The notes beneath the pieces are model-generated. The model saw only the letters and a program-made list of their open reading frames with translations, ran no database searches and had not been told where the DNA came from. The position numbers were made by a program, and so were the translations under genes. Positions 6,711-61,089 of a DNA stretch of 64,000 nt are shown here, piece after piece. Numbering within the stretch: the stretch's first letter is position 1; each line of letters opens with the position of its first letter. Source of the stretch: Amphiscolops sp. MND2022 (lineage: Eukaryota); the NCBI GenBank assembly GCA_964187785.1, contig OZ076409.1, forward strand, positions 20,772,001 through 20,836,000. Reading direction: 5' to 3'.

Positions 6711-7892
6711 CTTTTCTGATGTTATCAGTGAAGAAAAAGCGTTCTAAGAACCTAATTTTTGGGCAGTGTTCTTTTTTAAGTTTCAAATTAGGTGAAAGCG
6801 TTATTAGTCGGCGCTTTTAGAGTAAAAGAGGTCGAGTTTTAACGTAACACACAAAACCGGACGAGACTAAAGGTTCCCTCTTTCGATTTTTTCGGCTTTG
6901 AGATTTTTTTCGAAATTTTTTCAATGTCTCTTAAGGGTCCCCTATTTCACATTTTCGACACTTGGAGACTGTTTCATTAATTCTTGTTTTTCGTTTGTCG
7001 TTATTTTTAACGTTATGTCCGAAGTAATTTGTGTTCCACTAAAGAGGAGGCGGAGTTCAGAAAATTTTGCGCTATATCCGACTTGAGGATACATCCGACG
7101 TAAGTTGCGTTCCATTAAAGAGGCGGTGGACGTTCGAAAATATTGCGCTAAATCTGACTTTTTGACGTTATATCCGAACTATATTGCGTTTCGCTAAGGA
7201 GGAAGCGGAGGTTCGAAAATATTGCTACTTCAGAGGGCCTTGTTTAATTTGACATGTTGGAAACATATGCATGAACTAGTTCTCAGATCTGTTGAGGTAT
7301 TAATTTTGGTTTGATGACCTTTTTTGGATATTTCTTGATTTTTGGTTTCTTTTTCTCTGTGGCTGGTAGGTGTGCCACTTTTTCCCAAAGACGTCTTATG
7401 ACAGTATGTCTAAAATTCCACCGTACCACTGCCTCGTTTTTTGTTGAACTCAAATTGATTGTTTCATTTTGAGCATGAGTGCGCCTAAAAGTACGAGTGT
7501 GCTTCATAGACCGGAATTCTCTTGTTCAAGATTTGCATGTATGTGGTCTATATTTGGGCTTGGCAGTCTACTTGAAAAAAAACTTGTTTCCCGGAAAACT
7601 GCTCAAAACTGAAGCATATCTGCAATTTTATAATTTTTAGAAAGTTTTTTATCCTGGTTGGTTGAAATAAAACCTTGGCAGTCGCAAAATGTTATAGCTC
7701 GATGATTTTTGTTTTTTGGTGAAATTTCATTAGATGGTTAAGAATTAAGTTGTACATGTGCTACGTTTGGCCATAAACATCTGTGAGTTGAAAAGTATAC
7801 CTGCAGTGATGTCAGCAGTTAGGACAGTTTTCTGAAAGAAGTTTTTACTGTTGGCCTTGGAGTGTACACGCAAACGCCGTTTCCTGTTTCAG

Positions 7893-8808
7893 TGGATTCT
7901 TTGACCAGATAACACAATCGTTCCCAGCACTTTCATCATTCACTCTCACAACTTGGATGGGTCGTTCGTTGATTGATAGTTTCCTCACCCACTACAGGTC
8001 ATCGTTGCGATCCCTGTCTTTATGTTTTGAAACACGTGAGATCGACAGAAATCAAGCGAGGTTTCTGGAGATGATTTTGAACGGGTATTTACCGAATTTG
8101 GAGAAGCTTCAAGTTAGTTTTCTAAGTGTCAGCTGCTTCCATGACCCTATCTTGGACATACCACCAGTCGAGGACTCCTCCAGCAAAAAGTTTCGTATTC
8201 CCAACATTCTTGTCGACTTCAGAAGAGGTTACCTTCCTAATTTTAGTTGGATTCTCCCTAGTATGCGGAGTATATCGCGCAACTTTGAAGTGAGGTGTCT
8301 CATCTATCATTCCCAGCTTCTTGGTTATTTTGATTGTGCCCGTAATGTGACCCAGTTGACCCTGTATTCTCCGGTCAATTTTAACGTTTGCTCAGTATTG
8401 AGTCAGTGCCGAAACTTAGTCTATGCTGATTTCCATTCCTCAAAGTACTCTGTATTTCACCATGAATGCGGCTATCGTGGTTTATGTTCTTCCAATAAAT
8501 TGCAGTATCTTTCTTTGTATCTTCAAGCTAATAATCACGAATTCATTTTGAACTTTCTTAAATTTAACACGTTTTTAGGTGATTCAAATCCGAATTCTGT
8601 GTTTGTTATTCCGAAACTAAGCAACAACAATATTATCACCAAAGCAACTTACGATTGGATAACATCAGATGCTTCGACTTTTGACTCAATTAAAGCATTG
8701 AATTATCTCTCAAAAACATGGAAAAAGTTCAGCGAACCCGTACTACCTGAAGCCAGAGAGAGTGGATTTAATCGCGTAATCAAATTTTTCAGATGTGGCA
8801 AATTCTAA
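7893..8808 (+). CDS. F-box/LRR-like protein, exon 2 (LRR-like C-terminal region)
   Basis: Acceptor ttcctgtttcag at 7892 opens a phase-2 exon in frame with the 283-aa ORF 7957..8808 (QITQSFPALSSFTL, SLRSLSL, LPNLEKLQV, RNVTQLTL, RNLVYADF, NKLQYLSL). Phase matches the 2450 donor. Confidence 0.6.
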
Positions 8809-11053: not shown

Positions 11054-11852
11054 ATGAGAATTTTGAACAGTCTCATAGTGCTGAAAAAATCTGAAAGGGA
11101 TCTTTTAAGATCCATTCTGTTGCAAACTTAAAAAATTGAAGGGGCCCTTTGGGGACATTAAAAAGGTTTCGAAAAAAGTCTCACAAAGCCGAAAAAGGGG
11201 TAGTCTCATAGTTCTGAAAAAAGTAGAAAGGGGGAGGACCTTTGGCTTTGTAATTGTTTTGTATTGCATGTTATTTGGTTTGGATGCGTGAAAAATCAAG
11301 TAAGTACTAAGTACTTACGATAAAAGTGCTTAGTGCACAAAAAGTAGACCGATCGCATTGAACTGACGAAAAAACTAGCCACTGTAAGAGTCGTGCTTTT
11401 TCTTCGAAAACGCTGGCTAAAAACGAAAAGGTTTTTTGTATGACTCGGCCTTCCTCCTACTGGGGTTTTTAACGCCACTCCAAATCAGCCTTTAGAAATT
11501 TTGAACTGACACCCAAAGGTATTGGCCGCATGACGCCAGCTTTATTATCATTCTAACCTCTTGTGGGCTGGAGATCATTTTCAGGCTTTATTTTTTTTAC
11601 TGAAAAGGCATTTGATTCTCGTTGCATCGTGCAACCCAGTCTTGACGTTAATGGGCTTATTAATTAGTTCATACTAAGTTTTTGGCTTCAGTGCGTGTTC
11701 CAAAATTTTTCACCATAAATTGAATTCATTGATGGAACAAATTTGCCTAATTTGCAGATAGTTCGCGAATTTTTGGCAATTGAATTTTTGACTACTAACT
11801 TGAATTTACTAACAGTGAATCAATTTCAGAACTGGGCGATGGATGAAGCCAT

Positions 11853-12148
11853 ATGATTGGTGCCATTAGGCATGTCAGTCGGAAACTAACCAAGATGAAT
11901 CAAATTCAGTGGAATAATTTTGACGTGTTTGGTTTCGATCTTGATCACACATTTGCAGCATACAAGTTTCCCGAACAGCTGGAACTTTGCTACAACTCTC
12001 TTGCCCAATGTGCTATTGAAGACTTCAACTATTCGAAAGATCTTCTCTACCAAGATGGAGTAGCCGAAAAGTACATGAGACGAGGTTTGGTGGGCGATAA
12101 AGACAAAAGCTTGATACTGAAGTTGTCTAAACACGGAAAAATTCTCAG
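11853..12148 (+). CDS. NT5DC1: 5'-nucleotidase domain-containing protein 1-like (HAD family), exon 1
   Basis: DVFGFDLDHT is HAD motif I as in NT5DC1. Phase-2 donor AG|GTAGGC. Confidence 0.85.
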
Positions 12149-12218
12149 GTAGGCAGATCTAGAATAATGTGTTTGATTGAATATAAAGCCTATTTCATGC
12201 AAAGCGGCATGCGGAGAC

Positions 12219-12563
12219 CAGAGTTTTGTTGACATCGCTAATTTCTTTCGCTAAACCGCTAATTTCAAAATTGCTATTTTGTTGAAAAGCTTTTTCTTCA
12301 AACTATTGAATGTTTGAATTCAAGAATGTTTTAAATATAAACGATAATTTAATTCAATTTTTGCAAAAAAACTAGAATTTTTATACTGTGTAGGTTTTAC
12401 AGATGAAGAGTTGGCATTTTTCGTAATCCTTTTGAAATTTCGTGTTTTTTCCGAGGAAATTTTGAGTTAAAACAATCTATTAGTTACCACTAATTTGAAT
12501 CGCCGAAAAAAATTCTGCGCTGCGGTTAGTTTGCTAAATTGCTGATTATCGGTGTCAAAACTG
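12219..12563 (+). mobile_element. hAT-like MITE (CAG..TTTTG..ACA / TGTCAAAACTG ends)
   Basis: Short terminal inverted repeats and gctaa subterminal repeats. Homologous copies start at 42252 and about 50820 (the latter ends at about 53236). Confidence 0.55.
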
Positions 12564-12662
12564 ATGCAGAGCGTCTGGAAGTTATAAGCCTCAAGTTACA
12601 GTTGTCACCCAGTAATGTCAATCAAATTTACAACTGTTGATGATCTTCTGCTGATTTTACAG

Positions 12663-12951
12663 GGCTTCTGAAGGAACAGAGTTGTTATCAGAAGAACAGT
12701 TAATGAAGCAATTCGGACCTGACCTCACATTCTGCCCTGAAAAATTCCAACATCTGTGCAAATATGGAAATAGTGGTCCAGGGTTTAGTTTCATGTCATG
12801 CAACTTCTACGTGCCATCTCTGGCAATGTTTGGCAAAATGCACGACATGAAGGGCGGCAAGGCTGACCAAATCACGCACGAAATGTTCAGATGTGCCGCA
12901 AGAGTTTATGCCAAAGAGAATTTCAAGAACAAAACCAATTTTTACTTTCCG
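12663..12951 (+). CDS. NT5DC1: NT5DC1-like exon 2
   Basis: Acceptor ttttacag; the join gives ILR-ASEGTELL. Ends NFYFP at phase-0 donor GTTAGA. Confidence 0.85.
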
Positions 12952-13693
12952 GTTAGACCACTTTCTCAAATTTACCAGTCAATAAATACTGCTTCTGAAA
13001 AAAAGTGGTTTGGAAAACGTATCCTCTGAGAAAAACTTGAAACTTCAGAACAGGCTTTTAGGGGGTGTGTTTCATGCTCTACATTTTTAGGACGTGTCTA
13101 TTTCATCGCTTCGATGTTCAAGGATTCACTGCAATCAATGTTAAAACTAGGACATACCCCGTACTGAGATTCAATTTTTACCCATCATTGGCCATGGATG
13201 GCCCTATAACAGTTTCATCACTGGCTTGGATCAGCACTGGCGAGGAGTGGAAGCTAAAGTTTGATAAACGAAGGCATTTCAAGCCAAAATAGTAAAAATG
13301 ATTTTCCTGCCATCTCAGTAAAGTGTCTTCGTTTTTTGTCAAAAAATTGTAAAATTTTATCCACAGAAAGTCGTTGACCTTGCATATACCATCCCTGGCC
13401 AATTGATCAGAATTTTATTGTTCACGTGAAACATGATGTACCGAATTGGTTCAGGGCTGCATTGCTTCGATAAAAATGTTCTCGGAACATGTAACTACAT
13501 TAACCTATCCAACAATAGCAAAATAAACGAACTAATGAAACAGCCTAAAATTGCTAATTAGTGGTGTCGGAGCTCTTAAATATTTAACAAGGATGAGTTT
13601 GGAAAAGAGCAAAAAATGTGAAAATAGGAAATATTGTACGTGCCAACGGAACTTTTTGGGGATAACTTTTATTTCTTTCGTGCATTTCCACAG

Positions 13694-13929
13694 GCAGTGC
13701 AAGATAACCCGAGTCAGTACATCAAAGCCAACTCGAACGAGTTCAAGAAGTTTCTGCAAGAGATCCGGTCAGCGGGCAAGGTTGTGTTCATCTGCACCAA
13801 CTCTCACGCAGACTACGCCGTGCATGTTCTCAACACGTGTTTGCAAGACACTAACTGGCACCAGTACATTGACTTCCTCCTCTGCGATGCCGAGAAGCCA
13901 AAGTTCTTCACCGCTCAACAGAATCACTC
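13694..13929 (+). CDS. NT5DC1: NT5DC1-like exon 3
   Basis: Acceptor tttccacag; AGKVVFICTNSHADY (motif II) and DAEKPKFF (motif III). Phase-2 donor GTTAGT at 13930. Confidence 0.85.
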
Positions 13930-14828
13930 GTTAGTTGACAAGTTTATTGAATTGAAATTTAAAACGAAGACATCATTTGGTCGAATGAATTTTATGCAGT
14001 TTCAAGGAATCAACATGGAACGATTTCTACTTCCTACTTTGGACATTTCAGTGTTGACTACAACTTTTTCATTAGTTTTACAAAAAGCGAATACGCGTTA
14101 TCATTGAAAAAATAGTTTTTCCATATTTCATAATCTCTGAATCGCATTTTTATTTTATAAAATTCGCTTTAAAAATTTTGTAGACAGAAAATGGAGCATG
14201 TTCGACCAACAACGAAAATCGATTCGTAGCATATGTATTTTCGAAGATATCTGAACTTGTTTTAAAAAAGTGCCTAAAATGTTTGAAAAGGTTTCCATCT
14301 GTTCGTGGCAAAGTAAGAATTATGGCAACTTTCTCAATATCTGTTCCAAAACATGTTCAAGAGGTTCTCTTCATTAGCTTTGAGCAGGCGCCGTTTTTGT
14401 CTTGTTTTTCAAATCGGATTTTAGAAAAAGTATTTCCCGTTTTCATCAAAAGACAAGTCTTCGCTCCAGCGATCTTTTACTTTTTCAATAGTTTTTGCCT
14501 GAAACTACGAGAAACATGCTGGGAAAGAAACTGGAGATTACCTTGCGCTATTTGGGGAAATTTTCGGTACTGTGGAGAACAGAGTTCTAATAATTGTTCG
14601 TAAGACTTTGCTTTTTGAGCCTGCAGCGGGGTACCGTCTTGGGCCGTTCCCGGTTTGTTTCAAGTTGAACCATCATATCAAAGTATTAACTTTGTTGGTG
14701 AGAAATTGCCAAGCAAAAAGCGGTGGCTATACTAATTTAGAAAATGTCTTTTTGGAACCCTATATGCATGAATAAGTTTTCAGATCTGTAGAAATGTTTT
14801 ATTTTAGTTGAGATTTATTTTAGTTGAG

Positions 14829-15283
14829 ACTAGCCGGACCGAGTCATTGCCATATCTAAGGCTCAAAAATAGCAAAAGGACTTCAAAGTGCCAAAGTATT
14901 CTCTTCTACAGCACTCAATTTTTTTTGAAAAAAGTCTCACAATGCCGAAAAAAACTGAAAAGGAGTTTTTGGGATTTTTCAAGATCCATTCTGTCGCAAA
15001 ACTCCAAAAAAATTGAAGGGGGACCCTTTGGTGGAAAAGAAATTTTCAAAAAAAGTCGCACAATGCCAAAAAACTGGAAGGGGGACTTGCCCCCGGTAAT
15101 GTATGTTACGCGGAAAAAAGGAAAAACTTTTTTGGTTCAGTTTCCTGGGCCAACAGGTTCGATTTAAAATTTTGTAAAACTTTTGGTAGAACGATTTTGG
15201 TCACTTCAGATGTATCTAAAAAACACTGACGAAAAGCCATGGCTATAGTCGACTCTTTTCTTAAGAAAAGCGCCGACTAAAAA
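14829..15283 (-). mobile_element. HINE-like family A copy
   Basis: tatctaaggctcaaaaatagc ... tatagtcgactc...gcgccgactaaaa. The 3' hairpin is partly deleted. Confidence 0.7.
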
Positions 15284-15511
15284 TGCAATGCACCGCAAAG
15301 TAGCTGATTTTCAACTTGACAAAAAGGCCGATTTCTAAAGTGTAACAAACTGGCCTGTTTTGAGAACGTAGCAAAATGGCCGATTTTCAAATGAAGACTT
15401 AGAATTCATCCTTTTATCTCAATTGTTTTCTCAACTTAATTGAGTAAATTAATTTACTGTATGACTCGGCCTTTCTAATCATGGGGCATTTTGCAGCCCT
15501 CCAGGTTGACC

Positions 15512-16052
15512 TTTTTAGTCGGCGCATTTTAGTAGAAAATGAGCCTGACTATTACAGTGGGTAGTTTTTTTAGACGCGTAAGGTCCACTTTTTTGTTCAT
15601 TTGTTCAACAACGTCAAACCTCAACGACTTCAAACCTCAACAACTCCAACCTCAGAAGCGCGTCCAAAACGAAAAGAAAAAAAAACAAAACAGACGTCTA
15701 GAGCCTCGAAAACACACTAAGGATCCCCCCATAGTCCCACTTTTTTTCGGCACTATGAGACTTTTTGGATTGCACCAAAGGGTCCCCCTTCATTTGTTTC
15801 GATATTTTGCAACACAATGGATGTCAAAAAATCGCAAGGGGTCCCCCCTTTTACATTTTTCGGCACTGTGACACTGTTCAAAAATCTCATTTTGAAAATT
15901 TTTTTGAGAAATTTTTTCATGTCCCCAAAGGGCCCCCCTTCAATTTTTTTTATTTTTTGCAACCAGCTGGAGTTTCACAAAGCCCGAAGGGTCCCCCCTT
16001 TTCAATTTTGAGCCTTAGATATGGCGCCGACTTTGGCCGTTCTCGGCTTGTT
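15512..16052 (+). mobile_element. HINE-like family A copy
   Basis: tttttagtcggcgc ... ggcgccgactttggccgttctcggcttgtt. Confidence 0.75.
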
Positions 16053-16315
16053 AGAACTAGCCGCTAGTGAAATGTGGCAAGTCGCACCGCTTCGCTTCGG
16101 CATGATCCTATTTGTTACGCCTGAAAAATTGTTCATTTTGTGACGTTTCAAAATCGGCCGTTTTGTGGCGTCCCCGAAAAATGTGATGGTGCCACCACCT
16201 CTTGTCATGTTCGGGATGAAATTTTAAACTAAAAGATTAAAACAATCTTCATAAGCAATACTGAATTCGTCTCCATCAGAACAAATTGAAAATGAAAGGC
16301 CTCGATGCGATAATA

Positions 16316-16676
16316 AACAAGACGAGAACGTCTAAAATCGGCGCTATATCTAAGGCTCAAGAAGCAAAACATTTTTTTGAGAATTTTTTGAAGTTTTGAA
16401 TTTTTTTGGAAAAAGTCGCACAGTGCCGAAAAAAAATCGAAAACGGGGGACCCTTTACCCTTTAGTCTCGTCCGGTTTTGTGGGTTACCTTAAAAAAGTT
16501 TTAAAAAATGAAAGGGGGACGGACCCTTTGCACTAAGTTTGCATTGGCCGGACTTGGCACTTGGCCTTAGTGGTTTCAGGAGTTTCTTTAAAAAGTGGAC
16601 CGATCAGTGTGAGTCTGAAGAAAAAAGTCAGTTATAGTCGGGCATTTCCCTTGAAAGGAAAACGCGCCGACTAAAA
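16316..16676 (-). mobile_element. HINE-like family A copy
   Basis: aacaagacgagaacgtctaaaatcggcgc ... gcgccgactaaaa. Confidence 0.75.
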
Positions 16677-19600
16677 CAAGCTAGCATCTGTAAGAATCGG
16701 ACACTTTTTGATACAAAAAGCGTCGCCCAAAATTAATTTGGCGTTTCTGTTGAACATATGGAATGTGATCTACTTTATTAATTCTGAAAATTTCTATCTG
16801 AAACCAACTGGTCTTCTATTTTTAGAGAGATCGGCATTAATGGTTTTTCCATAATGATTTTCAGAAGAACTGAAACAATGTCCCATTTCAGTCAACCCTT
16901 TTCGTGAGAAAAAAACCGACTATAGCAGTGACATTTTTCAAGACCAGCGAACTGACGATTTCTATGAGCATTTCCATGGGTTGTGATTTCTAACTGCCAG
17001 TTGGTCTAGAGTAAAGATAAACCCGGCTTTTCTGAGTGCTGCTGGTGACCATTTTGAATACGTTTTGATCCTGTGGATCTGATGAGAGTTTTCTCAATGA
17101 TAAAGAAGAAGTTAATTTCCCCATTTCCGCGACGTCGGCGCTGAATGAGCAGTTATGCTTTTCTAATTCGGCGCCCTCCCGGATACTATCTCCCCATAGC
17201 AAGCTATGGTACTATATTTGCAGCCAAGTGGTCAAGCATTGGTGGACTTGAAGCTGTGGTTTCAAAGTGACTTGCTCAAGGTCACAAAGATCTGACTGCT
17301 CAGTGCTCACCGTTGCTCTTTGTTTTTGCTTTTCTCTGCCAAATGCACTGTTTTTGTCATTTACCATAACACTAAGCTAGGGATGAAGGACTTTCTTAAG
17401 GACCAACAATGGTGAAGTTGAGAGAGATTCGAACCTGATACTGCCCCAATACAGGCTGAATGCTTTATTGTTCAGAATCAGTTTTGTTCTTGTTTTGCGC
17501 AAGTAAAGAGTAGTGAAGAAGTGAAGTCAAATGTGAGAAGGTTCTTTTTTAAAACATCGTAGAGATGTTTTTGAAGAGGGATTTCATCTTGGTTAGGAGG
17601 AGAATTACTCCTGTCACCATGTCATATGGCAAAATAGGTTGGACAGAGCGGTAGCATTTATATTAGAGCTTTCTTGAATGCTTCAGGGTTTCTCTCCTTA
17701 GATTAACTCAAGGAACAAAGAGATGATGAAAGTTGTGTATTTTAGATAGAATGAAGTTCTTGAAGAAAGTAACATTGAGAAGATAATAATTTACAAGAGT
17801 GAAACTTTATAGTTTACGCGATTCGATGTCTGGTTGATATCGCAGTTGATTTGTTTTGTGTTTGAGTATATACAAGTCAACGTCCCTGCTTCAGAGGCTC
17901 ACTCTAGGTCTTGTGCTGCGCTGTGATTGGGTGTTGCATCTCTTTGGTCCACATCTGCCACGGGTGTCTGGAACTTCGAAATTTTGAATAAGTATACATG
18001 ATGAATATCATGACAACGCTTTTTACCAAAATGTGCAAGACTTGGCAGTGTCAAGTTTTCTAGGTGTCTGAGTGAAGGTCTTTTTTAATAATTTGACTAG
18101 ACGAATTTTTCAACATGTAAAACTCGACGACATAGTAATAGACGTTAGAGCAGTGTCAAAGAAAGCCAACGTACATGAGTTCGAATCCCACTCAGGGCAA
18201 GTTTTTCGTTTTCAAATTGAAATACGCAAATAGCGTTTTCCGATATAACGTTCATAAAGTAATATAATTCGGATGTTTGTGTGAACATTTCGGAAATGTT
18301 CCGGTTTTTGCTTTGGCCAAGAGGAAGGTGGGGGACTGTATATATCTAATTTTTCATTTTTTCATGAAATATCCTAATTGCATTACGATGCATAAACCGC
18401 AAAAGTGGTTTTTATCATCAAGTGTACAGTGTTTTTTTGCGTAAAACAAGAGCGAATGTATTTTAGTCAAATAGTTTAATGTGTTCATCGCGCATTCTGA
18501 TGCACCGTGTAATGAGAATTTGCGGATTTTGATCATTGAGCGTAATTAGAGAAAGTGTAAACCAGCAAGTAATTTTCAACCTAAAATTGGTTCAATTTCG
18601 TTTAATGCGTAAATTAGTCAATCTTTGACTAGAATTCAGTTTGACTAGATGTTCTCATATGATGCATATAACATGAAAATATTTTAGCTATAAGGTATCC
18701 GGTTGTGAATTTTTTCACTAGCTTTGGCTCAATTTCTTGAAGGCATCTAAAGCCCAACTTTTGGTATGATTATTTTACCTTAAATAACAAAATTGAGGGA
18801 TACGAAAGGATCGCCCCCCTTTTTGAATGCTTTTATATTTTGCAATCTCTTGGGAAAGAAACAAGCCCAAAAAAATGCCCATCTTTTGATTTATTCGGCA
18901 ATGTGACGTTTTCAAATTCCACAAAAACAGACCCTTTGCAATGTTGCAACAAGTTATTCTTTAGAATGAGAAGCGTTAGGGACGAACTTTGAATTTGATG
19001 AAAAAATGAATTTTAATTACACGTGCAACAAAACGAGTTGTTTCATGGAGTTCCTTATAAACGATGCAAGAATTCTTTTCCTGTAAATTAATCAAGCTAA
19101 GCGAGCGCAATCTCCAAATGTTGGCGAAGTCTTTCCTCTTTAATTTCCTTTGGAACTAGAACAGCCAAAATCTGTTCACTTCTCGGTGGTCTTCTGATAT
19201 CACGTGACCGTGATTACATTGTGAATGAAAGCTGCAAAGTAGTACATATAGAAATAATGAATTTCCACGGTGGAAATTAGATGACTTTTTCACCTGATGC
19301 CATTTCATTTTCTTTACTGACTTTAATCGATTAACTTTACTACAAAAAGGCGTCAAGTACCATGTAAGAAATAAATCGAACCTTTATTTGTGACAAAAAA
19401 ACTATAACAAAAATGCAATACTGTTAAGAAATCGTCCCCGGGTTTATTCTAGAGTTGAATTTCTCAAAAGCGGTTGAAAAACATCAAAAAGAGTTTCTTA
19501 CAATTTCATATTTGCGCAAATTTTTAAAATCAATTAGCGCCCCTAAATCCACTGAAGTAATTGAGATGCTTTGTTTTTGAAAATATGAAACCCTTTTAGA

Positions 19601-20771
19601 AATATCATGCTCAAAAATCTAAAATATAATTATTAGTTGATAAAGACGCTTGGCACGTAGGCGGACGATTTCTTGATCATAGTGTTGTATGTCGGTCTAA
19701 TTTCAACTATCAAATTGCAAAGAAACTTTCAGTTTCTTTTCTCATCGAATGGAACGTCATTTTAGCCTATTTTGCAATGTTTGACACCTTGTTTCAAGTT
19801 TTTCCGAGTGCTATTGATTGTTTCGAAATATTAATTATTTCGAATTCAATATTTCAGTTCCATTATTCCTATTTTCTGATTCAGTTAGATTTTTCTGAAT
19901 ACAAAGTAAGTTCCAATTTTCCAAAAGATAGGGTCCTAAAAAGTTTTTCTGTTTAGTTTGATAAATTTGTATTGCTGCTGCGTAAATGGCACATAGTGTT
20001 CCAAAAGTTTTCAATGATCCGGTTGCCCAAAGTGAGGAACTTTTTCAAGACCCATTTTCTCTCAATGTGCATTCTCCGTTTCTTTATCCGTAGTTATTTT
20101 GCTAAAATAACTCAAGTTTAACTTCACCTCCGGTAAGAAAATCCTGAGTTCAATTCATTTGTTAATGAATTTTACCCAGGATTTTCTGATATTTACATTT
20201 TTATTTAGTAACAGAGAGTTCAATTAGATTTGCCTGATAATACCTTGACCTTTGTTTTTCGGAATGTTGTAACTGGTGGTTACTCTCGAATTCTGTTAAA
20301 TGCTTATTTTAATTCATGGAATAATGTTGTTGCAACGTAGCGGAACGATCATTTTGTCTTTGACAGGTGCTTCCACATCCTCATAAGGATATTTGACTGT
20401 TTTGTTTCAAGAAATTTTGTACGTATTTGTACTTGTATGCGGGTTACCTACAACTAAAATTTTTTCCTATCCTTATGTGCCGGATTCGGTGTTTTCTGTT
20501 TTCTTCCCACTTGAAAATTTTTGCAAGACTTTTTAAAAATCTTTTATAAATTTTCCAAGATGAAGTCGTTTTGTGATACCAGATGTTTAACATCATGTGG
20601 AATAAGATTTTCATTAGAACAAAAATTTTCACACTTTTTGGTTATGAGTTTCATTGAAATAACTCACTGTTTCATGTGACTCAAAAGATAGTCGATGACT
20701 TTTTTAATTACTCAAGTTTTGAGTCATAACGGAAACTATCGTGACTTTTCTATCTAAAAAGGATTATTATA

Positions 20772-20930
20772 CAGTTGAATTCGCCTAATTCGCATCGCTA
20801 GGGACCCAATAAAATGGTACGGTTAATGAGAAAGACGAATTAACCGAATAATATTGCTTAGGTCGTCGCGAAACGGGGGTTTCCGATACATACGAATTAA
20901 ACGAAGATCCGAATTAACCGAAGTTGACTG
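20772..20930. mobile_element. Tc1/pogo-type MITE with TA target duplication
   Basis: TA-CAGTTGAATTCG...CGAAGTTGACTG-TA. A second, inverted copy lies at 22963-23125. Confidence 0.7.
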
Positions 20931-22326
20931 TATGTCAGAATAATGGAGAGTTTCAACAGTTGAGTTGCATTCAGAATATTTTAGAATTTGAAAAAAATAT
21001 ACATCAGTGTCAATTTCGAAAAAAGTGTAGGTGCGTAAAAAAATGGCAGGAAAGATACCGGATTTACCTGTTCACGCAAAGAATGTCGATTTTTCGATTG
21101 ATTTTTGGGTACATTTTCTACAAAAGTGATATCAATAGAATCTAAAACATTCCTAGTTGAGACTGCTGGAACTTTTTACTTGCTGCAGGCCTGCATACAT
21201 TGTAATTTTATTATAAAACCTAGAAAATTCAGTGGGGTTCTTGTAATAAATCTTGTAGAAATGGACTGCGTTTTCCACTACTGCAACTAAATTTGAAAAT
21301 ATTTCCGCTTTTTTACGGACACAATCACGTATTCACACATTGATTTCTCAACTACTCATCTGATATAATCACCGCTTCTCAAATAGGATGCTAAAGATGA
21401 CGCTAGTTTGTTGTTTACATTGTGAATGAAATTAATTTGCATTAAAATGGCGCCAAAATTGTTGACGTCGCAACTGCATATAAAAGTAGGACCGGCGGTT
21501 ATTACCGCATTAAAGTTTCCGCAAGAGGTTTACAAAATCATTATAAAAGTTGCTGGCAACTTTAAAGAACATGAAAAAAGTTCAAGCATGTTCAACGTGG
21601 GATTCCATTCGTCTTTTTAAAACCCAAATGATTCGGGGAAAAATAAAAGTCCGTCTTTTTTCTCAAAAGTTCGGTGTTTTTTGTACACTATAGACGTTTT
21701 CAAGAGCATTTTAATGCTTATCAATCGCAACTGTCCTACTTCATTGTATCGTCTATTTTAGTTATTTTAGTGGTAGTTCTTTCTGAGCAGTTAGTTGGGA
21801 ATGTTTCTTCGGTTTTTCATCTGGGCTTAAGTCATGATGTAAGACTTGTTCTCTGAATATGTCTTCAAAAATTCTCTTTTTTGCATGAATTTTATTCATG
21901 CTATACTTTTTTGCTTTATTTCTATCCAAACAGTTACGTTACCGAGTTTGCGTTTCCGATGATATGGAAATGTTTGAAAATGCAGACGTAAAGTTCAATG
22001 GTTGTTAGTAAGCTCACACGATGTTCTATGGAAACTTCCTAGCATTCATCCTGCACTCACTTCCATTCTTGGCCTTCTTTCAGTGTCGTTGTTATTTGAT
22101 CATCTCTCAACCAATCAATCGCAAGGGCCTTTTTCTCATGGCTGGATTTATCCATTGGATTGAGTGAATGTAAACTTAGCAGGTCCCAACTATTTACCCT
22201 TTCTGTTTGTTCGTCGTTCATCTTGTGGCATGATCGTGGATAAAAGATTGCGATGGATCATCAATTATTTGTCTAATATCACCATAATCATCATCGAAAG
22301 CAGAGCAGTCGCAAAAAGTGTGAGAT

Positions 22327-22741
22327 ATGGAGAGAAATAACAACGTGAAGACGAGTAAAGCCGATTACAAAGTTAATATTCTTTTTCTCTACAGGTTCTT
22401 CTATATTCTCAAAACAGCCAACTCCTGGTTAAGTGTCATTCTTGCTCTGCTGATTCTGTTTCTGTGTTTGGGTCAACAGATTCTAGTCTATTACGTTGGT
22501 CTTTTAGCATCACAGTTCTCTAAAGTGTTGGTGGACCAAGACTCAGATGGTTTCAAACACGTTTTATTCCGGGCTCTGGCTCTCACAGTGGGCGTATCTT
22601 TTGCCAACTCTTTCGTACAGTATGCTTATCAGACATTGTATCTTCACTGGAGGCAGAAAATGTGTTTCAAACTTCACAAATTGTATTTCACACGCTACAA
22701 TTATTATCACATCAACAACTGTTCTACCTCCTCACCAGCTG
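22327..22741 (+). CDS. ABCD4: ABC transporter subfamily D member 4-like (lysosomal cobalamin exporter family), exon 1
   Basis: Hydrophobic TM segments, QILVYYVGLLASQF, LYLHWRQKMCFKLHKLYF...YYHIN typical of the ABCD4 N-terminal TMD. Phase-1 donor G|GTATTT. Confidence 0.85.
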
Positions 22742-22962
22742 GTATTTATATTGTTTTTCACATCCAATCAATTAAATGCTCCTTTGTTTCGAACTTGGTG
22801 CTTTTAGTACATCAATTTTTAACTACTATATTGCGTATCAGTCTAAGTTTTACTAGCTTCCGAAAATTTTAGCTGTAATATTTGATCAGAATTTACTTGG
22901 AAATTTTTTCAAATATCATGTTCGTTTCACTGCTTTTATGAAATATTCGTATTTTAGCCATA

Positions 22963-23125
22963 CTGTCAACTCCGGTTAGTTCGTAGCCGGATCTTCGTTT
23001 AATTCATACGTATCTGAGAATCCATTTCGCGCCGACCAAAATAATATCATCCGGTTAATTCGTATCACTCCTTATTCGTACTGTTTCATCGGTCCATAGC
23101 GATACGAATTAGGCGGATTCCTCTG
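22963..23125. mobile_element. Tc1/pogo-type MITE, inverted copy of 20772-20930, in the ABCD4 intron
   Basis: Aligns by eye along its length to the reverse complement of 20772-20930. Confidence 0.7.
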
Positions 23126-23241
23126 CATTACAGATACTTCTTTCGTCGAATTTCCCGTTAATTGATTGGGCAATACACATTTTCCAAGTTTTTATAAAAG
23201 AGGAATTGAGTTTGATTGATGTGAAAAACAAACATGGTAAG

Positions 23242-24746
23242 GTTTCAATGTGGACAACGTGGATCAGCGTGTAACGGCAGACACGGACAAACTTCTTCTG
23301 ACCACTGCCCAGATTTACCCTACTCTCATTTTGTCGCCTTTCACTATCGCGTATTACACTTACAAGTGCTACAATGCTACGGGTTTCATGGGTCCTCTGG
23401 TCATATTCGGCGTCTTCGTTGTCGGCACCGTATGCAACAAGTTTTTGATGGGTCCTGTTGTTTCAAAAACAGTCAAACAAGAAGCAGCTGAAGGAGACTT
23501 TCGTTACTTCCATATGAAAGTCCGGTCTTGTAGCCAAAGTATAGCTTTCTACGACGGGGGACCTTTTGAACTCAGAACAGGCAATCAGTCAATCACTGCT
23601 TTGGTGAAAGTACAAGCTTCATTGTTTCTTCGCCAATTTGTTGTCAAATGCTTCACATCATTCTATGACTACATGGGCGCTATACAAAGCTATTTAGTCA
23701 TAGCTGTTCCTATTTTCGGAGGTCATTTCAAAGGCAAAACTGAAGGGGAACTTATCGAGATTGTCTCGGCATATTCGTTTCAGTCCATGTATCTCATTTA
23801 CTGTTTCAGTAATTTGATAGATCTTTCCAATAAAATTTCTGAGATTGCTGGAGTTACTCACAGAGTTGGCGAATTAGTTGAGGCTTTTCAGATCATTGAA
23901 GCTCAACACGAGCTGGTTTTTACCAAAGATGAGTCTGATGATTTTAACGACTGTTCATTGGACATTCAAGGAAACGAAATGGAGAATAGGAAACGACCTC
24001 CTGGAATTCAATCGGAACCTTTGATATCAGTGAAGAACCTCACTTTTGGAGTGCCTGCGGAAAGTCTTCTTGGCACTGAGATACAGGACGCAGATTTTAT
24101 GGTGTCATTGGTGGATAACCTGTCTCTAAAACTATTCTCAGGGGACCGTCTTTTGATAACAGGGCCAAATGGGGTCGGGAAGTCCTCCCTTTTACGTATT
24201 TTTGCTTCGATGTGGACTCCAAAAAGTGGCGAAATTTCAATTGCCACTGACAATGTTCTTTTCTTGCCTCAAGTACCTTATTTTTGCAGGGGTTCTTTGT
24301 TGGATCAACTGTATTACCCTCAGATAATAAAATCGCCCTCTGAGAGTGAAGTAGCTGAAGCTATGAAAGTTTTGAAAGAACTGGGTCTTGATTACATCCT
24401 AGATCGGTGCAATGGCTCTATCACCGACACGCAGAGTTGGAACTGGACTTCCGAATTGTCTCAAGGTGAAGCTCAGAAGTTGTCATTTGGCCGCGTCTTT
24501 TTGAACAAACCCACTGTTTTGTTTATGGACGAGGCAACCAGTGCCATAAGTACTGACGAGGAGTTGAGAATTTTCGAGATGCTCAACAAATTCGAGTCTC
24601 TGCAATTGTTTGTCAGCATAGCACATTCCATGACGGTACTAAAACATCATAATATTGTGTTGCACCTCTCCCCAGACCAAACTTGGGAGATGAAGCGGAG
24701 CTGTACAACTTCATCTGAAAACATCGACCTTTTTGTTGAAGAATGA
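23242..24746 (+). CDS. ABCD4: ABCD4-like exon 2 (rest of TMD plus nucleotide-binding domain)
   Basis: DNVDQRVTAD, EAA-like EGDFRYFH, Walker A GPNGVGKSS, FLPQ.PY, signature LSQGEAQKL, Walker B LFMDEATSA, H-loop SIAH. Only AG giving phase 1 after the in-frame TAA is 23240-23241. Spliced CDS 1920 nt (639 aa). Confidence 0.9.
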
Positions 24747-25485
24747 AATTGATCTTGATTAAAACGTGTACATTGTACTGACTTGACAGCTCTTGTATAT
24801 GTATTTATTTTTTGTATCACTAAACGGAACAATCATAAATTGCTGATCAAGTGATCTTTTTATTTGTATGCAGCATCATTAGCTACTGTCTGTCTCTCTG
24901 GGAGAAGAATTATCGAAGTGAGTGTATTTTTTAAATTGAATCTCTAACAAGAGTCTTTATGAGCGGCAACAACAATATTTTTAGGATCAAGCGAAACCAT
25001 TCGAAACTCTTACAAAAAGTTCGAAAGATAGTTTTTAAAAGGCACCTTTTGGTTCATAATGACTTTTTTTGGCTAATCTGGCACTTTTTGACTAAATTTG
25101 GCACCTTTCTATAAATACATTTTGAAAGGAATCGAAAGCAGCACGTGTGAAATAATTAGCCTGTTGTTCATTTGATCTGGCTTCGCACGATGAGAGTCTT
25201 CTCTGAAACAGCGCTGTGATTCGTCGTGATGAGGAAGCGGCCTCAATTTTCTTTCAATACGAACGATTATATCAGCTTGAAAAACGTGTTCGTGAAAATA
25301 TGCGTCAAACAGGTTCTTTCAAGAATTTTCCGTTATTCTCAACCACTTCTTTTTAGTCGACCCTTTTTGTGAATGAAATGGTCCGACTCTTACAATGGCA
25401 AGTTTTTTTCCAGACATAACCGCTTTTTGAACAGACTTTGTTCACGCTGCCACTTGGCCCAGTGATCACCGTGTCTTTCTTTATT

Positions 25486-25990
25486 ATTTCTGCTTTAGCA
25501 GGAAAAGTATTGTAACCTCAAACTGTCTACTTTTTTTCAGTACAATTTTTCGTACGATACTGAATAATTCGGCAGTGACTGTAAGCGTGGGAATTAAATT
25601 TCTCAAGCTGCCGACGACACTTCAATTCTAGTGCGATGGAACGAGCGAGTGGTAATTATCCATTCGTATGCTGACGTCATTGAGATGAAGCGAGCGAATG
25701 TTCGTAATTGTGCTTTCGTTGCCCCGAGTTATTGAGATGAAGCGAATGAGAGTTATTATTCGTTCGTTGAGAGCTTCGCCTGCATTCAAATGCGAATGCG
25801 AAACTTCGTCTACGCTTAGTAGTTATATTTTCTTTAGTCCGAGAAGAATTAAAGGCGGTGTAAACTTGTACAGTGATTAATTGTGCGCTAAATAATGATT
25901 AAACAAGAGTGTATTGGTATTCCAGATATGATTCTATTATTAATGAAAGATTAAAGCTGAAATAGTACTGAGCCCCGGAGGGGCCTATTT
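25486..25990 (+). mobile_element. HINE-like family C copy, inserted in a degenerate family A copy (about 25350-26220)
   Basis: 5' ATTTCTGCTTTA-GCAGGAA; 3' TAAAGCTGAAAT + GCCCC-gga-GGGGC hairpin + ctaTTTT. Confidence 0.7.
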
Positions 25991-26488
25991 TGTAGAATCC
26001 CTGCTTACCAAGCAAGAGGTCGCGGACTCGAATCCAACACAGAACTAAAATCTTTCACTGTTTGCAGTTCTTGACGAGTCAAGGCTATCTGAAGGTTTTT
26101 TCAACACTGTGCCACTGTTTTAAAAGAAAGAATTAAAAGTTATTTTTGTTTTTACTTTCGTTTCGAGGCCACTTCAGATGTTTTTTGGCACTGTGAAATT
26201 TATGAAAATGGGGCGGCTACTTGATACGTTTTCGTCTTATTAGTATTTCTCCGTAAGCTGGAATGTTATTAAAACAGTAGAGTGGACCTTTTATTTTTCC
26301 CTCATTTTGTTCACCAGAATATTACCGCGTGTTCTCTTTCCGCAGTAGTCGAACTGAATTTCGTTGGCAATGTGCCTCTGTCTGTTGTAATTGATCGTTA
26401 GCTGAGAGCTTTCAAGTAAATGCAAAATTTAGTTTACCCTTCTTGTAGAATCGTCTTTTGTTCAACTGTACGAAGTAGATTGTCCTTA

Positions 26489-27489
26489 ATTACACTTGCG
26501 ATAAGCAAGTGTTATGGGAAAGTGCGGGTGCTTTTTTTTCCGCGCGACAACTCTCTGATTTCGCGCGGCAACTCGCACGTTTCACGCGTTCGTGGTCTAG
26601 TGGTAAGATGCTTGCTTTTCAACCCAGAGGTTTCGTGTTCGAACCCGTGGGTATGCGCTAATTTTTTTTACAAGTATTCCGAAGCAGAAGGTTCTGACTT
26701 TTTTCGGCACTATGAGACTTTTCGGCTTTGTGAGACTTTTTTTTCGAAATTTTTTAAATGTCCCCAAAGAGTCCTCCTTTCAATTTTTTTGATATTTTGC
26801 AAGAGAACGAATGTTAAAAAATCCCAAAGGGTCCCTTTTTTCAGAATTTTCGGCACTATGAGACTGTTCAAAATTCTAATTTTTTTTTTCAAAAATTTTT
26901 TAGACTCCCTTATTTTTTTCAAAAATTTTTTGTAAATGTCCCCAAAGCGTCCTCCTTTCAATTTTTTGATATCTTGCAACAGAACGAATGTTATAAAATC
27001 CTAAAGCGTCCCTTTTTCACATTTTTCTGCACTATGCGACTTGGCGGAAACTTTTTTCTCAATTTTTAGTTTTAAAAGACCGTTTTTTTAAAGACCGATC
27101 TTTTTTCTTTGCGACTTTTTTAAAATTTGTTTTCACCGAAGCCCCTGCTCAATTTTTACAAGAAACAAAACGTTTTGCGAGAGAACTCCTCAAGGCTTTG
27201 CGACTTACCGGAGACCATCAAAAATGTTTTCGAAAAATTTTGAATTTTTTTTCTATTTTCTGTTTAAGGTTTTCCGTTGAGAAAGAATGGGTTTTTTGCT
27301 GTTTTCAGTTGTGGAAGAATGGTTTTCGAGGCTTACGCGTATCCCTTCGGGTATTTTTTGGCGCTGTAAAATTGTAAAATTGATGAAATTTTAATCTCCT
27401 TTTACCCTTGGTTTTCCGTATGATATTGCTTATTTGGTTTTCTTCAAAAGTTCGCAAGTGTTTGCGAAGCACGGCTTCGCCTCTGTGTT
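26489..27489 (+). mobile_element. HINE-like family B copy 2
   Basis: Same termini as 9266-10172; near-identical by eye to 58928-59963. Confidence 0.8.
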
Positions 27490-28187
27490 GAATATTGTCG
27501 TTACTTCAAGTGACAAGGTTAATAGTCTCAGATTTGGAATTTTCAGTGCAACTGTAAATGTTTTAGATGCTCCGTATTAAGTTATTTATCTATCCCTAGT
27601 CAACTAGAATTTTCTGCGAAGTCTTTGAAGTTTGGTTGTTTCTATTGAAACTGCGATTTCACTTCTCTCAGAAGTATCAGAAATTATGGAATTTAAAAAA
27701 ATGACTCGTGGAAATCACATTTTTGGCAAATCTGTCTGGTGACGCTGGATTTACTCCTTGAAGTTTATGTTGAACTTTTTGCACTTGCAAAAATATCATT
27801 GAGGCAGAGAGGCAATTTTGTTTTTGAAACGTCGTTTCTAACCTCATGCATAGCTGGGTCAAATCTTGAATGAGCCATTCAACTAGACGCTGAAAATGAA
27901 CCGTTGCTTATTTGAGTAGTTTCGCCAAGTATGAATGAATAAAAGTTTTTTTCCGATAAACTGTTGAAAAAGTCATGCAGAATACTTCTGAATTTTCATT
28001 AAATGAAAAAGCCCTCGCATGACTTGAAAGTTTCACTGCGTCATCAGTTTTGTGAAAGGTTGAATCAAAGATAACATAAATCCTAAAACGTCTTTGAATG
28101 ATCTCATAGTGCAGAAACGGCCAAGATATTTCATGAAAGCTAAATTTTTTCTTGCAGTTGCGGAATTTGTCATTTGTCTTTGTTTAG

Positions 28188-28713
28188 ACCGTTTTACGAG
28201 TGGAACATGAAAGTTGATCAAATGGGCGACACTCCAGCAGCGTCACTTGAAGGTGGACGGGTATACGTGAAAGGAAACATACACACTTTGCATGAAGCTT
28301 TGAAGAAGATGACAGGGAAAGAATCGTACAGCTGTGCGTACTTCGGGGATAGTATATCTTCCGACATAGTTCCCTGTAAGACCGCCGGTCTTTTCCATCC
28401 AATCGCAGTTGTGGAAGAAATGGAGAGTGAAACTGACGACATTGTGATCAAGGAAAAGCTCACTTTCTCAACATCACCCACTGCTGGTCCATGGGGATCG
28501 ATTTTCGCGGATCAATCAAAAGGCGAAGATGGGGCCAAAGTTGCAGAAAAAACAGTTTTGACTCATTTAATCGAACAGAACGCACTTGTTTGTATACCCA
28601 GTGTAGAAGTGCTTCCCAAAACGTACAAAGATGCATTGCCCATTCAAACTTTCAATAACGATGACCCTGCCAAAGGCTGGTTCCCGGGACCCCCAGAAGC
28701 TTTATTAAAATAA
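28188..28713 (+). CDS. NT5DC1: NT5DC1-like exon 4 (terminal)
   Basis: Acceptor ttgtttag, phase 2, gives NHS-PFYEW; GNIHTLHEALKKMTGK..YFGDSISSDI (motif IV), VVEEM, WGSIF. Spliced CDS 1347 nt (448 aa). AATAAA at about 28854. Confidence 0.88.
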
Positions 28714-29271
28714 TGACTATACAATGATTTATATATTTTGACTATACAATATTACACTATTTTTACCCGGATTTTTTCTAATGGCTACGTTATAGTAAAC
28801 TTATATATTTATATATCGTATAATTGACTTTCCGTATTTTTTTCAAGTGAAGTAATAAAGATTTTAAAAGCAACACTCGGCTTCAGAATAGACCTCAGTA
28901 GAGAGCCAGTGCGGTGGTTAGCTAGTAAACGATTTCATTGCGTAATTTCATTCAATTTTTTACTCAAATTGTTCGGCAGAATTTTCAAAAGTGAAGAATT
29001 TGTCTATATAAGAAAATTTTGTGTCTTCAGTCTAAATCGTTTGACATCTTTTATCGCAATTTTGATTGACTTTTGACACATTTGAAAGAAAATTATAATG
29101 CAATTTATTGCGGGCTCTGTTGATAAGACCTTGTACATCCAGTACGAATGCGAAACGTCATCTGCAATTAGTAGTTGTATTTCTGTAGTCCGAGAAGAAT
29201 CAAAGGCGTTGTAAATTGTGCGCTGTATATTTAATTAAAGCAGCGTATAGTTATTTCAGATACATTGTATG

Positions 29272-31049: not shown

Positions 31050-31978
31050 GTCCTGTCAAATTGCATTTCGCTAAAGAGTCCGTATGTTTAAACAGGGCCC
31101 GTGTAATTTCTCGGCCTTTGAAAAATTAACTTCATCTTTTTAGGACCCTGTTGAGTCTGTATTACTATCTTAGTTAATTAGGAACATTTGGAGTGTATTC
31201 GATTCTTGCCAACCAGTTGTCTCTATAGGACTTGTGAGCTACTCTTTATTGAAACTTCTCACCTCTACCAAAAGACAAATTCATTGAATTGTGTTTTTCA
31301 ACCATTGTAGCTAGTTCTTATTTACAAATTTTATAAGAAAATGTGCCCGACTGTTACAGTGACTAGTTTTTTCATAAGACCCAGAATATATGTGAATGGT
31401 CCACTTTTCAACACAGTTTCAATACCCCAGAAATTGAACCCCAGTAAACATGCGCGTTTCCCAAGCAGACGAACGTCGATTCGATGTCTGCCTAGGACTA
31501 AAAATATTTGCTTGCAAACCCGTGACTTGTCAAAGGGCCCCCTTTGTGTTTTTTTTCGAATTCAATTCATCGAAGGGCGGCTAATTTTTCAGAAATGTAG
31601 CAATGAACGTTGTTTATTCATTTCCAACATGAAAAATTTTCTTCTAAAGAGCAACAAGTAAGTATCGGGGCGTGGCGTCATAGGGCGAGATCTAAGGGAA
31701 TTTGAGAGCTAACTTTATTTCAGAAATGTTCGACTGGTGCTAAAATTCATAACAAATGATCAACTTGCTCAGTTGAAGTGTTGTTAGTCTTCGATGAGAT
31801 TTTCGAGCATTCTGGCGGTCCTGTTTCGGAACTATTTTTTATTATTTTAGTTCATTTTTTTCAGGATCTAATGCGGCATATGTAGGGTTGCATAAGTTTG
31901 ATATGGTTGTTGTGATCAACTTATTCAATAGCTTTTGCTTGTAAAGCATCTGCTATTTAATAGGCCAACTTCAGGTCT

Positions 31979-48423: not shown

Positions 48424-48792
48424 GTGAGATTTTCTGTACTTTGAATATATCCTTATTTGAGATTTCACGAAGCCAGCGACAGTCCAGAAATTATGAGTTT
48501 ATAATGAGGTGGGTTCCATTAAAGTGAGCAACCACTTCTGAATTGTCAGTTTTTTTTGTTCTGCGTAGTTTATTCTGCGATTCTTCTGAAGACCATTAGG
48601 CATGCATCTTTCATTACTATTCTTCATTAATGCTTGGTGTATTTCAAATTTGCACATGAATTTGTTTTGTTGCCTATGGTTTTATCGTCTAACTAAACCT
48701 TGGGGTGAAAACGTTTAAACGCATAAAAATCTGTCCAAGAATATTCGACGACTTCTTGATAGCACTATTTTCGAACCTTATGAATGTTTCAG

Positions 48793-49218
48793 GATTCGGT
48801 GCACATTTTCGTTCACAAATACTTACAACAAGATGGGGTGCTGATCATCAAGCTTCTCACGTCTGCAACCAGCTCGTTCTTCGGGTTTGAAGTTTGCAAC
48901 GCCTTGTTTCTCCATTTCGTGTCCATCGCCCAATCGGGTTCTGAAAGAAGCATGAGCTGCGAAAACAACGTGGAGGTTGACAGCTTGCCTCTACACTTTG
49001 CCAATGATGGTTTCGAAGTTGGCAATGGATGTGAAAACGAAAGGGATAAGAAGCATTGGGCGTTTGTCGAGAGTGCTATGAAAGAAGAGATTGTGTTAGA
49101 TGAGAAGCCAACGCGTGACAATAGACTGCATCGGTGGTTTGAACATGCCACCAATGAGAAGAAAACTTTGGCCTTGGAACACTTTAGCACGTCAGGTACT
49201 TTTGAAAATGTGAGTTGA
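48793..49218 (+). CDS. Innexin exon 7 (terminal if unspliced; internal donors after 49195 and 49209)
   Basis: FVHKYLQQDGVLIIKLL is the conserved innexin C-terminal F...YL..DGV....L motif. Seven-exon CDS 1506 nt (501 aa). Confidence 0.85.
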   Translation, partial: DSVHIFVHKYLQQDGVLIIKLLTSATSSFFGFEVCNALFLHFVSIAQSGSERSMSCENNVEVDSLPLHFANDGFEVGNGCENERDKKHWAFVESAMKEEIVLDEKPTRDNRLHRWFEHATNEKKTLALEHFSTSGTFENVS

Positions 49219-60250: not shown

Positions 60251-61089
60251 TAAATAGCAAAACAGATTGATATCAACCTCCCGAACTCGTCAGACAAGAG
60301 TCGAGATTATCAATAGCTTTTGCGACTATATCTGGTAAGAGATCAAACTGGATTCCATTTGTTTCTGATGCCAACTCCTATTTTTCCAGAACATTTCTGG
60401 AGTACTTTCATCACGTGGCCTTTGGTCTCGCCTTGTATTGTATGAATTTTTTGGAACAACTTTCATATTCTCATTTTCAGTTTCTTGTGTGCCAAATGGT
60501 CCAATTTGTCACCTTAAAGTTTCGTAGCACTTCATAGAACTATTTTTGTAAGTTCGTGGATTGAAAAAAGTCGCTATTACAGTCGCGTTTCACTTCATGA
60601 AGTGCCGACTAAAAGACGTTTTTGCCAGCTCTTCGGTAAAATAACACTCTACGTTCATTTCTATAGTTGAGCATAACAAATTTATGAATCGACACCAGGG
60701 TTTAGTGCTAATTCTGCTTGCGGATTGACTTCGTTTCACCAGGCCAATTGAACAAATTCTCAAATCGACATCAAAAGAATGTCATCTCTTGAAAAAATAT
60801 CAGACCAAAATATCAAAAAAATGAAAGGCGACCGTTTGGAGACAGTAAAATATTTTTGAGAAAATGTCTCAGTGTCGGAAAACAATTGAAAGGGGACCCT
60901 TTACTCTCGTCCGGTTTTGTGTATTACGCTGAAAAAGGAACAACTATCATAGTTCAGTTCCCTCGGCCAAATGTTACAATTCTGCCCCTTAAAAATTTAT
61001 AGAATTTATATAGCCTAATTGTTGTGATAAACTTATTAAATAGGTTGTTTTGGTGCTTGTGTCTGCTATCACAGATTCTGTTCTTGGGT

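Follow-up and report, generated by a model that had tools for sequence, protein, structure and literature searches.

A predicted ABCD4-like gene nested on the same strand within intron 3 of an NT5DC1-like gene in the acoel Amphiscolops sp. MND2022

In this study, we analysed a gap-free stretch of 64,000 nucleotides from the 1.07-Gb genome assembly of Amphiscolops sp. MND2022 (GCA_964187785.1, contig OZ076409.1, positions 20772001-20836000, forward strand; hereafter the window, whose own numbering is used below) to gain insight into two genes that lie one inside the other. Sequence analysis confirmed that the sole ABCD4-like gene of this assembly sits on the strand of the sole NT5DC1-like gene and separates its coding exon 3 from exon 4. 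The whole coding sequence of the guest falls between consecutive host exons, and both genes are intact (448 and 639 amino acids for host and guest, respectively). Nests of this kind, with guest and host on one strand, are a recognised though less frequent arrangement of genes, and this pair is another case.

The host gene comprises four predicted coding exons on the + strand. Exons 1 (11853-12148), 3 (13694-13929) and 4 (28188-28713) were identified through Pfam matches and searches, the last also through a conserved motif and the stop codon, and exon 2 (12663-12951), which has no Pfam match alone, through its open frame and homologue alignment; a candidate host AATAAA follows exon 4 at 28854-28859 (+). 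Joining the four exons yields 448 amino acids with a single terminal stop, and all three introns are GT-AG. Intron 3 (13930-28187; 14,258 nt, phase 2), which contains the ABCD4-like gene, has the borders CTC/gttagt...tttgtttag/ACC. HAD motifs I (DLDHT), II (TNS), III (K263) and IV (GDSISSD) lie at residues 29, 229, 263 and 327, with motif I in exon 1, motifs II and III in exon 3 and motif IV encoded by exon 4. Profile positions 177-257 of PF05761 are matched in exon 3, and the match resumes at 257 and reaches 339 in exon 4. The Pfam matches of both genes are not chance, because the relevant E-values range from 1e-7 to 1e-35. When the 448-residue model was compared with nine homologues (eight hand-picked from 150 matches, plus P0129), all nine gave a single high-scoring segment pair over the exon 3/4 junction, and in seven the spacing over residues 267-275 agreed within 0-3 residues; P0132, the closest homologue, is continuous across the junction. 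The continuous profile and the nine alignments uphold the original prediction that exons 3 and 4 join in phase to restore a 448-residue HAD protein.

The 448-residue model requires the acceptor at 13693; a 470-residue model with the acceptor at 13627 scored lower against all nine homologues and was rejected. An in-frame acceptor is also present at 28157, 30 nt upstream of exon 4, where it would add ten residues and give 458. At the 5′ end, the NT5DC1 ATG is preceded at a distance of 24 nt by a candidate acceptor for cis-splicing or spliced leader (SL) trans-splicing (11829, +), and TACTAAC occurs at 11793 and 11807. Two out-of-frame ATGs occur at 11839-11853, between this acceptor and the NT5DC1 start codon.

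Families of both genes were assigned by best hits, tree-free. The named matches looked up for the host were NT5DC1, and its only other assembly matches for exons 1 and 3 (33-36% identity) belong to a paralogue, the separate C3 gene. The host is thus assigned as an NT5DC1-like PF05761 HAD 5′-nucleotidase, closer to NT5DC1 than to NT5C2 or NT5DC2/3. Searches with exons 1, 3 and 4 found no second copy in the assembly, the next matches being 24-40% identical, so exon 4 appears not to be part of a paralogue, a possibility that had been raised against the nesting; no alternative partner gene for it was found in the assembly. NT5DC1 proteins of named acoels were neither found among the longer proteins nor named among the matches looked up, and a metagenome scan returned 12 loci with best segments 25-44% identical, none of them acoel-like.

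The guest coding sequence consists of exon 1 (22327-22741), identified by Pfam, homologue alignment and search, and exon 2 (23242-24746), which holds the remaining membrane domain and the ATPase. Together they encode 639 amino acids on the + strand with no internal stop. They are separated by a 500-nt intron of phase 1 (22742-23241) with a purine-rich acceptor and GGT on both flanks. The PF06472 match runs 11-111 and then 112-269 across the intron, followed by PF00005, and exon 2 encodes Walker A (residue 446), signature (544), Walker B (567) and H-loop (597) motifs, with a Q-loop also present. The chosen join scored best against four full-length homologues, with donor 22721 almost equal (2717 vs 2712). 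The closest named homologues, from Symsagittifera roscoffensis and Convolutriloba macropyga, are 54-57% identical and score about 570 bits, vs 339 for the next animal. The guest is thus assigned as an ABCD4-like PF06472 plus PF00005 half-transporter and predicted vitamin B12 transporter, a function taken from homologue names; ABCD4 presumably exports cobalamin from lysosomes together with LMBD1, a putative role here. Frames, motifs and Pfam continuity thus agree with the intact two-exon, same-orientation coding sequence proposed earlier for intron 3. No second copy of either ABCD4 exon was detected in the assembly (next matches 24-40% identity). Both genes are therefore single-copy in the searches run, which covered host exons 1, 3 and 4 and both guest exons.

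The linkage of these pieces was also seen in other records. The entries that the protein collection took from ENA for the window are unspliced, exon-wise open reading frames (ORFs), and those for NT5DC1 exons 1, 3 and 4 (P0304, P0131 and P0130) and ABCD4 exons 1 and 2 (P0001 and P0121) each lie on a 429,264-bp ENA contig, a record other than the 104-Mb contig C1. In a relative, ORFs for ABCD4 exon 2 (P0002, 78% identity) and NT5DC1 exon 4 (P0122, 70%) each lie on a 246,700-bp contig and start at the same exon borders; this is evidence for linkage and for common introns, but not for the order of the genes. Misassembly is unlikely, given the five pieces on one contig of the second record and the linkage in the relative. 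The window has no N and thus shows no gap in the interval, where an assembly break had been recognised as a risk at the outset.

How host RNA passes the guest was considered by comparing possible joins. If NT5DC1 exon 3 were spliced to any of five candidate acceptors that precede ABCD4, products of 278-292 amino acids would result; ABCD4's own acceptor would give one of 356 and retention of intron 3 one of 332, and motif IV is missing from all of them. A join of ABCD4 exon 1 to NT5DC1 exon 4 would encode 145-155 residues. No in-frame NT5DC1-ABCD4 fusion was found among the acceptors tried. Because exon 4 carries motif IV and all the other joins tested truncate the protein, a long splice would be required, and host RNA is likely spliced from 13929 to 28188 across ABCD4. 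Sequence and homology thus support the earlier proposal that the host transcript must skip the ABCD4 exons.

We consider it probable that the two genes make separate mRNAs, the host transcript being spliced from 13929 to 28188 over ABCD4 and ABCD4 being transcribed independently, with a start within that intron. In such a model, ABCD4 would be transcribed from an internal promoter within intron 3, and its 5′ end would probably be trimmed by SL trans-splicing or by removal of an intron in the 5′ untranslated region. The host would get through because the guest's signals are weak, namely a purine-rich acceptor and a non-canonical poly(A) hexamer. The ABCD4 intron acceptor contains 6/20 pyrimidines, the lowest value among the ten junctions compared (the other nine have 10-15). 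The candidate poly(A) signals are ATTAAA at 24758 and CATAAA at 24834 (+), and no AATAAA occurs between the ABCD4 stop and 27938. In addition, the ends of the ABCD4 intron can pair through 48-nt arms (22751-22798 and 23184-23231) with a score of 36, reached by none of 300 shuffles. Such paired ends are absent from the three host introns, and the fold z score is -3.04 for the ABCD4 intron vs -0.53 for NT5DC1 intron 1. The acceptor would likely be effective only once the paired ends bring its own donor near, shielding the host. This acceptor also overlaps a donor-like G/GTAAG at 23237.

Several points weigh against this interpretation. First, the junctions and the ABCD4 start site are predicted. 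Second, six of the ten junctions in the acceptor comparison were predicted from distant homologues, and three of six junctions in an ABCD3-like paralogue yielded no candidate. Third, intron 3 contains 19 other pyrimidine-rich YAG sites and eight AATAAA; since the host has to pass over so many decoys in any case, the argument that the weak signals of ABCD4 matter specially loses force. Fourth, the ENA records give linkage but not the order of the genes, and the 429-kb contig could have been built from the very reads behind the present assembly. Fifth, the promoter of ABCD4 was not located, the only motif cluster being in a repeat. The promoter-like motifs at 21444-21490, which lie in the region near 21400 suggested in the original prediction as a start, were rejected since they fall inside a high-copy dispersed repeat (21300-21600) with 3,480 candidate copies; no other match was returned by the repeat search for 21610-22330.

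Other features of intron 3 were also recorded. At least 3,490 nt of it match repeats elsewhere in the window. A short repeat at 20769-20934 is a 77% inverted partner of the copy of a 170-nt repeat in the ABCD4 intron (22959-23128), and this inverted pair brackets ABCD4 exon 1. Looping out of ABCD4 by inverted repeats was rejected: six pairs span the gene, which is not special compared with other 14.3-kb intervals, where 14 long-range inverted pairs were counted in the interval starting at 1, 24 in that starting at 6001 and 0-3 in the other seven. No structured RNA of an Rfam family reached threshold in 11-30 kb, the one weak match having an E-value of 0.067. As regards the age of intron 3, the short ORFs of 150 matches break at scattered places.

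Reportedly, 30.2% of genes are SL trans-spliced in S. roscoffensis (bioRxiv 10.1101/2022.08.27.505549). The 21-nt core of that species' leader has 2,817 matches in the present assembly vs 7 for a reversed control, and one array unit examined carries a 31-nt SL exon, a GTAAGT donor, a Sm-site-like run and an adjoining 5S rRNA gene. These leader-core matches and SL RNA gene features make it very likely that SL trans-splicing is active in this animal. The array (contig C1, 16.22-16.41 Mb) is a tandem repeat of a 904-bp unit that holds a single gene each for SL RNA and 5S rRNA, and its SL core is identical to the published S. roscoffensis core. What is new here is that, because the genome carries SL RNA genes, trans-splicing could also release ABCD4 from the host transcript, a route that the original prediction does not mention.

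This leads to the rival that survives best, a possible but rather doubtful one, in which ABCD4 would lack a promoter and a single one has two outcomes: a transcript from the NT5DC1 promoter would be either cis-spliced over ABCD4 or, to form ABCD4 mRNA, SL trans-spliced at an acceptor close ahead of the ABCD4 ATG and polyadenylated after 24746. The pair would then be an 'either-or operon', a tentative notion in which each transcript is cis-spliced over 14 kb or trans-spliced inside the intron, and the folded ABCD4 intron with its weak acceptor would bar the host donor from ABCD4's last exon. The SL RNA genes of the 904-bp unit, the share of trans-spliced genes in S. roscoffensis and the missing ABCD4 promoter all speak for it. 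So does the position of the candidate ABCD4 5′ acceptors: among 22083, 22303 and 22308 (+), the AG at 22303 lies 24 nt before the start codon, the same distance as in NT5DC1, and no upstream ATG follows it or 22308. However, these two near-ATG acceptors are weak (9/20 and 7/20 pyrimidines, respectively), and ABCD4 begins 8.4 kb past host exon 3. In nematodes, an unpaired upstream donor tends to convert a trans-splice site to a cis one, which we also counted against a shared promoter.

A local misjoin of the assembly, with ABCD4 and exon 4 being neighbours in another order, is unlikely. Short repeats related to each other (15512, 25350 and 29272) do flank the blocks that hold ABCD4 and exon 4; however, they are only 60-100 nt long and 70-94% alike, the window is free of gaps, and all pieces tested are single-copy and occur together on one contig in the second record. 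We regard as very unlikely a model in which host exons 1-3 are cis-spliced before ABCD4, for example at 22083, to form a chimeric mRNA whose downstream part would be translated into ABCD4. The acceptor at 22083 is strong (17/20 pyrimidines), but all such joins run into a stop 5-19 codons past the junction, four upstream ATGs follow 22083 and there is no open in-frame fusion; with these early stops and upstream ATGs, ABCD4 would be poorly translated from the chimera. Least credible is a split host, whose exon 4 would lie on a different RNA (e.g., ABCD4 read-through) and be linked to exons 1-3 through genic trans-splicing. The organism does have trans-splicing machinery, but GT-AG sites that are colinear, in phase and on one strand can be joined without such a reaction, and intron 3 has unpaired ends.

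On the favoured interpretation of separate mRNAs, an intronless ABCD4 would have moved into the host intron long ago, possibly by retroposition, with the old copy lost and the single intron gained afterwards. The ABCD4 clusters of S. roscoffensis and C. macropyga contain full-length ENA entries of 635 and 645 amino acids, and ENA is the listed source of both acoel RefSeq proteins (XP_063713222.1 and XP_075238742.1). From the way in which ENA entries are called, ABCD4 appears to be intronless in both species. In this genome, ABCD4 has one intron, compared with at least seven coding segments in the ABCD3-like paralogue. A selective intron loss by ABCD4, suggested by this difference, fits either retroposition long ago or selection acting on a guest that shares the host's strand; that other genes here also have open frames of 954 and 1,171 amino acids without interruption counts against retroposition. 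No intron-bearing parent copy of ABCD4 was found in the assembly, although an orphan retrogene is possible. No SL relic was detected upstream of ABCD4 (score 20 vs a shuffle mean of 20.1, reached by 106/200 shuffles) or before NT5DC1. Given that neither a parent copy nor a leader relic was found and that the gene is apparently intronless in two acoels, ABCD4 is not a recent retrocopy. Of the earlier suggestion of a relocated or retroposed gene, relocation fits, this being the only copy, while retroposition is possible and, if it took place, ancient.

The single ABCD4 intron looks like a later gain, with loss in the other lineage as the alternative, and it was perhaps gained from an inverted-repeat element. 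An introner family was rejected, no second copy of the intron having been found in the assembly by DNA searches that skip very common words. The GGT on both flanks is also a common splice context, and the pairing arms are sub-terminal.

SL exons were also met at the heads of long interspersed nuclear elements (LINEs). Retrotransposons of this class open exactly with the 31-nt SL exon at 61013-64000 (+) of the window and at dispersed loci elsewhere (L015-L024 and L049-L053). At all ten dispersed SL loci viewed, the sequence after the SL is unlike the SL RNA gene. All five extended loci carry reverse transcriptase, two with a PHD-finger ORF1 and three with an endonuclease match, and the elements span several distinct families. 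These features suggest that LINE RNAs were trans-spliced and then reinserted with the leader. The nearest precedent, among the accounts drawn on here, is the SL-tagged retrogenes of dinoflagellates, and SL-headed LINEs may merit more attention than the nesting itself. A degenerate SL exon at 31900-31931 (+), with two mismatches in the 21-nt core, is probably the head of a decayed insertion.

Elsewhere in the window, an F-box ORF (1837-2490) and a 332-residue ORF with no clear Pfam match (7810-8808), both on the + strand upstream of NT5DC1, perhaps form one gene. A CENP-B/Brinker-type helix-turn-helix ORF (35628-36320, -) and LINE reverse transcriptase fragments (37177-38581, +) were also observed, as was a 144-residue ORF (48784-49215, +) with no Pfam match that we take to resemble an innexin C-terminus. 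Outside the window, the ABCD3-like gene (L041-L042; contig C1, 80.61-80.62 Mb) is followed about 1 kb on, on the same strand, by a 954-residue single-frame kinase-like gene, and the two are possibly an SL-resolved pair.

Although ordinary as a type of layout, the NT5DC1-ABCD4 pair offers a clean test of how host RNA passes an intron-bearing, same-strand gene, as both genes lack a backup copy and the animal has SL trans-splicing besides. It also serves as a warning that automated annotation of acoels will break up NT5DC1 or merge it with ABCD4. At the protein level, the closest named matches of the host, NT5DC1 of Branchiostoma, Phallusia and salmonids, share its domain order and motifs, and the same is true of acoel ABCD4 for the guest (XP_063713222.1 and XP_075238742.1), which has one intron here and apparently none there. 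The ABCD4 intron may be likened to introners (PMC9860276), since it is absent from relatives and has inverted-repeat ends and GGT flanks; unlike them, it is not a family, no second copy having been found in the genome.

As the original prediction stated, nested genes are more often antisense: in flies, 71.27% are reported to be antisense and about 29% same-strand (PMC3814207), and among human nested coding pairs 75 are parallel vs 152 antiparallel, with 22 of the 75 parallel pairs kept in mouse (PMC2330155). A 2024 survey of all gene types reported only a slight antisense bias (PMC11694760). The original prediction was also correct that human NT5DC1 hosts COL10A1 in antisense; the intron concerned is intron 6 (PMC6759074). 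The vertebrate pair has the same host family and a gene in a long intron, whereas its guest differs and lies on the opposite strand, and nothing points to the same intron or to a shared origin with the acoel nest. The SL-resolved operons of C. elegans likewise place same-strand genes in an SL trans-splicing animal (PMC2330155). Unlike those operons as described there, the present arrangement is a gene within a gene, with the guest 8.4 kb past the upstream exon, so that the products would be alternatives, not successive cistrons.

The closest likeness in layout is to the same-strand nests of flies and humans, in which a whole gene lies in one long host intron and mis-splicing is a risk; nested genes can cause host exonisation and cryptic polyadenylation (PMC3192792). 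Among fly same-strand nested genes, 72.53% are reported to be single-exon and the others to have a median of one intron, which was read as selection against mis-splicing (PMC3814207). The one intron of ABCD4 equals that median, and two acoels are reported to have 4.2-6.4 exons per gene (PMC10565955). In contrast to the nested genes of that fly study, described as fast-evolving and narrowly expressed, both partners here are conserved and single-copy, and, unlike in the fly and human nests as reported, SL RNA genes here open a second route to the nested mRNA.

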